A DNA stretch of 64,000 nucleotides. Origin: Escherichia coli (GTDB taxonomy: Bacteria; Pseudomonadota; Gammaproteobacteria; Enterobacterales; Enterobacteriaceae). The notes under the pieces were generated by a model. The model searched no databases. It was not told where the DNA came from and saw only the letters and a list, made by a program, of their open reading frames with translations. Positions 58,389 through 59,110 of this stretch are shown here, in pieces. The position numbers and the translations under genes were made by a program. Numbering within the stretch: the first letter of the stretch is position 1; each line of letters starts with the position of its first letter. The stretch is from assembly GCF_030013205.1 (NCBI RefSeq), contig NZ_CP122648.1. One strand, written 5' to 3'.

Positions 58389-59110
58389 TTAGCGCGTCGC
58401 CCAACCCTGTTTGTGCAAATAATCCAGTATAAATGGGCGGCTTTCTTTAATGATTGTTCGGCGGATATGATCGCTCCAGGTATCCCGGCGATTATTGCTG
58501 CCACGTGTGAGGTAATATTCCGCCAGTTGTTCGTCATACTGCGCCAGTGCGTCTTTATCCAGCGGTTGATAGCTGTTTTCATGCACCAAAATGGAGGACG
58601 GTAAACGCGGCTTAAGATCCGGATTATCCGCAGGCCAGCCAAGGCACAGCCCAAACAGCGGCAGAACATGCTGCGGTAATTTCAGCAGCTCCGTCACCGC
58701 TTCAATATTATTGCGCAGGCCGCCGATATATACCCCGCCCAATCCCAGCGATTCCGCTGCGGTTAATGCATTCTGCGCCATCATTGCCGTATCAACGACA
58801 CCGAGCAACAGTTGTTCCGCCAGGCCAAGTTGTGCATCCGGACAGATCTGTAAATGGCGGTTAAAGTCGGCACAGAACACCCAGAACTCCGCCGCTTGCG
58901 CTACGTGTTTTTGCCCGCCGGTCAGCGTCACCAGTTCATCACGTAACGCTTTGTCGGTAATGCGAATAATGCTACTGCACTGCAAAAACTGGAACTGGAC
59001 GTCGCACGGGCGCTGTTAATAATCGCCTCACGCTGCGCTTCGGAAATGGGTTCATCAGTGAAATGGCGAATGGAGCGATGGCCACAAATAAGTTCAATGG
59101 TTGGCGTCAT
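58389..59110 (-). pseudogene. nfsA: nfsA (oxygen-insensitive NADPH nitroreductase) disrupted by a -1 frameshift
   Basis: NfsA N-terminus (MTPTIELICGHRSIRHFTDEPISEAQREAIINSARATSSSSF) is in one frame and terminates 18 codons later; the rest (QCSSIIRITDKAL...GWATR) continues in another frame; junction at the A5 run 58984-58988, where I expect A6 in the intact gene. Confidence 0.75.

Follow-up and report, generated by a model that had tools for sequence, protein, structure and literature searches.

The window, a stretch of 64,000 nucleotides of Escherichia coli DNA (contig NZ_CP122648.1, assembly GCF_030013205.1), contains the gene order ybjC-nfsA-rimK-ybjN, which is kept in every relative examined, and within this block nfsA is broken by the loss of a single base (Table 1). 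When one T is restored to the gene, its product aligns over 240 of 240 residues with the E. coli NfsA of PDB 1F5V, from which it differs by five substitutions (E58D, I117T, K141E, A172S and G187D), and its match to the NfsA equivalog NF008033 (NCBIfam) covers profile positions 1-240 of 240 with a score of 437 bits, the curated cut-off being 223 bits. These values uphold the assignment of the gene to nfsA in the first-pass annotation of this DNA, a reading made from the letters and a list of open reading frames.

Table 1. Features of the window discussed in the text, with their coordinates.
Feature	Coordinates	Strand	Details
nfsA pseudogene (oxygen-insensitive NADPH nitroreductase A)	58389..59110	-	722 nt against the normal 723
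Coding-strand T5 run (plus-strand A5)	58984..58988	-	wild type is T6, coding nt 123-128
N-terminal stub, 42 native and 18 out-of-frame residues	58928..59110	-	premature TGA at 58928-58930
Out-of-frame remainder, NfsA codons 43-240	58389..58985	-	198-aa ORF from TTG
ybjC (DUF1418), upstream gene, intact	59094..59381	-	17-nt overlap of its 3' end with the start of nfsA
rimK, downstream gene, intact	57426..58328	-	same strand as nfsA
Integrated element, 10.6 kb (insert ~14624-25211)	14603-25232		between clpS/yljB and cspD
21-nt imperfect direct repeats bounding the 10.6-kb element	14603-14623 and 25212-25232		

As it stands in the window, the gene lacks an uninterrupted 240-aa NfsA frame, with the break falling at codon 43, and many stops occupy the starting frame beyond codon 60. 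On the coding strand, the tract reads ...GTCCAGTTCCAG-TTTTT-GCAGTGCAG..., and the reading frame around T5 is ...TCC AGT TTT TGC AGT.... The 60-aa ORF begins MTPT and runs to SSSSF, its native part ending in SARATSSSSF, after which CSAVALFALPTKRYVMNW and a stop follow. This stub reaches 58 bits against NF008033, which is under the cut-off, and the 198-aa ORF matches the same profile at positions 43-240; the ORF list and the repaired alignment thus bear out the earlier description of 42 N-terminal and 198 C-terminal codons that are intact in different frames. In standard nomenclature, the lesion is c.123delT (c.128del by the 3' rule), p.Leu43Cysfs*19, and it lies in what was the longest homopolymer of nfsA prior to the deletion. 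RefSeq has tagged the identical sequence in the strain ETEC4079 as ‘nfsA, frameshifted’, i.e., as a pseudogene.

Searches of public genomes point to T6 as the wild-type state of nfsA. With a 901-base query, only one out of 5,416 complete E. coli genomes matches over 901 bases at 100%, and the other close matches among those listed span 902 bases. A 61-mer centred on the tract finds T5 in 11 records, representing 10 strains, and the remaining records match at 98.4% and have one base more, in agreement with the first-pass annotation, which had placed the loss of one of six bases in this run. T6 is also present in the same-lineage genomes ETEC4067, ETEC1748, W13-16, and CFSAN018748, and over 25.7 kb of comparison with these four, T5 is the sole indel, with no compensating indel being found. 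Consequently, the idea of a lineage whose reference state is T5 was rejected, as the lineage carries T6, and the possibility, raised earlier, of five bases being the lineage's reference state together with a compensating change fails on both counts.

The nearest complete genome is that of ETEC4079, isolated from pig faeces in Belgium, which provides the single perfect match to the 901-base query. The 10.6-kb island aside, the window is collinear and identical with ETEC4079 over ~53.4 kb, and there are no mismatches other than two, at 14620 and 25217, both inside the repeats that bound the island. Because the island is absent from ETEC4079 at that site, the window is not the ETEC4079 record itself; it is a sibling, deposited as a separate record. 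At position 39664, in ltaE, both the window and ETEC4079 have C, a derived and non-synonymous state, whereas the four relatives have A, and the exact LtaE variant is present on only 3 public contigs, which makes it a handy marker for the ETEC4077/4078F/4079 clone. These three strains were grouped in the source paper as strains with a common resistance plasmid, and the window differs from ETEC_4078F at one homopolymer, at 32719 (T6/T7).

Beyond this trio, the Logan assembly of the run SRR30668465 shows 100% identity with the window across 15.6 kb, T5 included. Its 72-kb contig spans ltaE but does not appear among the carriers of the LtaE variant, and for this reason the run is regarded as a different isolate. 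More distant comparisons over 25.7 kb give 1 SNP in addition to the T5 indel for ETEC4067, 6 SNPs for W13-16, and 20 SNPs for CFSAN018748. As the local haplotype of the window is identical to that of ETEC4067, a T6 strain, the T5 allele appears to have arisen within the lineage, which is a pig edema-disease-type E. coli lineage, O139:H1-like.

The interpretation that we consider very likely is that T5 is a genuine, inherited one-base deletion caused by slippage, which inactivates NfsA and lowers susceptibility to nitrofurans only slightly. In the proposed course of events, replication slippage in T6 would have yielded T5 in the O139:H1-like pig lineage, from which the allele would have been inherited by the clonal trio and by at least one further isolate. 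Ribosomes would then translate 42 native codons and 18 wrong ones and stop at codon 61, leaving a stub that keeps His11 and Ser13. Because the frameshift leaves Arg203, which contacts the substrate and NADPH, untranslated together with the rest of the fold, an active NfsA dimer could not be expected to form, and the reductive activation of nitrofurans would be reduced. Passages of bioRxiv 10.1101/2024.10.07.616996 describe H11, S13, and R203 as functionally important in NfsA. Loss of NfsA function is therefore a safe inference, and, in addition, the premature stop could possibly exert a polar effect on rimK.

The same allele recurs widely across E. coli. The exact 60-aa stub peptide occurs on 51 public contigs, and the T5 peptide together with its allelic variants occurs on ~630 contigs across the listed cluster members, a count which is unusable as a prevalence as a large share of these are noisy long-read assemblies. 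With the noisy assemblies excluded, clean T5 alleles sit on at least 9 local haplotypes that are 8-61 SNPs apart over 3.9 kb, on the basis of which the T6 tract would be a recurrent mutational hotspot. Eight other finished genomes with T5 were examined, and in each of them the 8 kb inspected contain no frameshifted gene apart from nfsA. Moreover, the peptide expected from the opposite event, a gain of one T (T7), is found on 5 contigs only, versus hundreds for the -1 event. Besides recurrence, there is evidence of descent: the T5 lesion sits on one and the same haplotype in IMT5155 (chicken), DE17 (duck, China), and VTB96815v (chicken, South Africa), the IMT5155-type T5 peptide (E20K) is present on 48 contigs, and a further contig (L027) belongs to the same poultry-associated lineage. 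The shared poultry haplotype indicates clonal inheritance, presumably of a geographically widespread clone that lacks NfsA.

Why T5 has persisted in the pig lineage is a separate matter. The deletion may be a neutral passenger, namely a real, inactivating mutation at a hotspot that drifted without any exposure to nitrofurans, reflecting mutation bias rather than selection; this account concerns the persistence of T5 only, and thus overlaps with the best explanation instead of excluding it. The tract is the longest homopolymer of the gene, and T5 is found on many backgrounds, as mutation pressure alone predicts. Furthermore, nitrofurans have not been legal in food animals in the EU since the 1990s, which counts in the same direction. 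However, three further and mechanistically different nfsA lesions are found in the same pig lineage. In SRR11215245 (Logan, L017), a 197-bp deletion between GCCATTT repeats, corresponding to 59068-59264 of the window, has removed the 3' end of ybjC together with roughly 16 codons from the start of nfsA, in a near-identical background that shows 3 SNPs in 10.7 kb and has T6 intact; this deletion is evidently an independent nfsA knockout. GCA_012292825.1 (L051) has an internal nfsA deletion of ~66 bp, at ~58641-58706 of the window, and AP027440.1 (L050) has, 17 bp ahead of the nfsA ATG (window 59127), an insertion that carries a transposase gene of the Y2_Tnp type.

With T5 included, four different nfsA lesions are thus present in near-identical pig-lineage backgrounds, and because homopolymer bias cannot explain the three further ones, they hint at selection. 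This is a small hint that loss of NfsA may have been selected in the pig lineage or on farms, and drift of a neutral T5 remains a possible, if doubtful, account. A broader proposal, that the T6 tract (codons 41-43) is the preferred breaking point of nfsA across E. coli and that recurrent positive selection has acted in the pig lineage in addition, is speculative and on balance rather unlikely. If true, it would imply that an agent so far overlooked continues to select for NfsA loss in livestock; candidates would be nitrofurans, whether left over from past use or used illegally, or another nitroaromatic compound that NfsA activates.

A second alternative is that the mutation does not exist, the true genome having T6 and an intact nfsA, with one T lost in nanopore basecalling or polishing. 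Concern of this kind is reasonable, because the same T6 to T5 call arises from both true mutation and long-read homopolymer error. ETEC4079, and probably the window too, was assembled from ONT R9.4.1-only reads with Trycycler or flye and polished with medaka, and R9.4.1 chemistry loses bases in homopolymers. The accuracy claimed for the project, Q50, predicts ~0.6 residual errors per 64 kb, and as such a single frameshift in the window would be unsurprising. An example may lie only 1.7 kb from the tract, where the T8 run of ybjL (window 60725-60732) is T7 in the project assemblies ETEC1748 and CP122938, probably a homopolymer error that makes ybjL ‘frameshifted’ there. In addition, T5 at exactly this tract recurs in many public long-read assemblies that are obviously noisy: in the long-contig assemblies carrying the T5 peptide that were so classed (L007, L010, L013, L021, L022, L025, L028-L032, and L034), the homopolymer indels number 1-8 per kb, and the majority of the neighbouring genes are disrupted.

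Several observations nevertheless count against an artefact in the window. The window and its sibling ETEC4079, which were sequenced separately, both have T5, as does the separate run SRR30668465, in which the shared region shows no difference at all. T6 is called, with identical flanks, in at least 9 further assemblies that the same pipeline produced, and a systematic error driven by the sequence context is therefore unlikely. Not only is T5 the sole indel against the four same-lineage genomes, but the other 34 homopolymers of at least 6 nt in the 25.7 kb agree as well, including the T8 that was missed by other assemblies. In 114 kb of annotation sampled from ETEC4079, nfsA is the sole frameshifted gene of known function. 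Nanopore under-calling artefacts produce a same-looking change at the same tract, but the assemblies affected have a heavy indel load, while the window has no homopolymer indel besides that of nfsA. An artefact is accordingly improbable, and T5 in the window is very probably a genuine mutation; the first-pass annotation was right to name sequencing error as an alternative, for which the artefactual T5 calls elsewhere provide grounds, but the shared T5 and the clean surroundings disfavour it here. In practice, nfsA ‘frameshifts’ taken from noisy long-contig assemblies are unreliable, and genotype prediction from nanopore data alone can falsely call nfsA loss unless the indel load or short reads are checked.

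If T5 is a genuine deletion, the phenotype to be expected depends on the second nitroreductase gene, nfsB. That nfsA loss is the established first step to nitrofuran resistance, as had been stated at the outset, agrees with PMC8767348, in which the nitrofurantoin MICs are 16-64 mg/L for null mutants of nfsA alone (e.g., 32 mg/L for I228fs) and at least 128 mg/L for nfsA nfsB double mutants. As nfsB lies ~315 kb outside the window, its state was read from ETEC4079 as a proxy, in which it is full-length, encoding 217 aa that score 384 bits against NF008275; the check for nfsB lesions called for earlier thus finds none in this genome. The combination that defines a first-step mutant, an inactivating nfsA lesion with an intact nfsB, is present, the former in the window and the latter in the proxy. 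Given the intact nfsB of ETEC4079, the predicted phenotype is no more than a small rise in MIC, ‘pre-resistant’ rather than clinically resistant, a concept discussed in bioRxiv 10.1101/2024.01.25.577238. The word ‘nitrofuran’ has 0 occurrences in the susceptibility panel of the source paper. The strain, a livestock pathogen, is predicted to be one step from nitrofuran resistance, and the practical importance of this is minor.

It is conceivable that the lesion is leaky, with a low-level -1 slippage of tRNA-Phe on T5 or reinitiation at TTG keeping enough NfsA for the phenotype to be absent, and a -1 shift on AGT-TTT-T would, as reasoned from the sequence, give ...S-F-L-Q..., the native sequence; however, five T are far below the tract lengths that give efficient transcriptional or translational slippage. 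Although the MICs published for mutants of nfsA alone overlap with the range of the wild type (e.g., H11Y, 16 mg/L; PMC8767348), this account is hardly credible, given that neither a stimulatory element nor a Shine-Dalgarno-like sequence upstream of the TTG of the 198-aa ORF is visible by eye, that a product without residues 1-42 would be without H11 and S13, and that NfsA is undetectable by proteomics in nfsA frameshift mutants (bioRxiv 10.1101/2024.01.25.577238). Efficient translation of the 198-aa ORF is not expected.

Inactivation of nfsA by this probably genuine deletion is an ordinary event, as the 123delT lesion is already published and already annotated by RefSeq. Wan et al. 2021 (Microb Genom, PMC8767348, Table 2) listed nfsA 123delT/L43fs in the nitrofurantoin-resistant isolate IN08, which has the identical nucleotide change, in the same tract, with the same predicted truncation as the window; in the literature searched for 123delT, L43fs, or a named hotspot at the tract, this was the only report found. 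IN08, however, is a human clinical isolate of ST685 with a further change, nfsB G153D, and an MIC >512 mg/L (PMC8767348), whereas the window has a pig edema-disease-type background and its nearest complete genome retains an intact nfsB, and for the latter reason high-level resistance is not expected here. Compared with first-step nfsA mutants in general, which have lost nfsA through nonsense, frameshift, IS insertion, or deletion mutations and have kept nfsB, nothing essential differs, and the window adds one more case, from a veterinary isolate. Passages of bioRxiv 10.1101/2024.10.07.616996 present homopolymer frameshifts in nfsA as what mutS strains typically acquire when selected with nitrofurantoin. 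The deletion in the window belongs to the same mutational class, a one-base homopolymer indel, but no mutator signs are seen in the window, given the 1 SNP and 1 indel that separate it from ETEC4067 in 25.7 kb.

Three other features of the window deserve mention. Next to ybjL, at 62330-64000, lies a P2-like prophage remnant with an ogr/Delta zinc finger, a truncated gpD, and an acyltransferase; its architecture is common to the window, ETEC4079, ETEC1748, ETEC4067, and the O139:H1 edema-disease strain W13-16, and in other lineages the same site is filled by P2-type elements that are intact or have decayed differently. At 44210-45448, a pentapeptide-repeat gene is annotated as truncated, with no C-terminus, in ETEC4079 and every relative examined, and is apparently an old, shared pseudogene. 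The 10.6-kb island that distinguishes the window from ETEC4079 encodes a tyrosine integrase, an HTH regulator, an Icd-like protein, a primase, an SSB, and a DUF1441 protein, as well as a fusion of a ClpP-like prohead protease with a major capsid protein. From this gene content, it looks like a phage satellite of the capsid-forming, PICI-like type, and it is 99.9% identical to elements in E. coli from sheep and river water.
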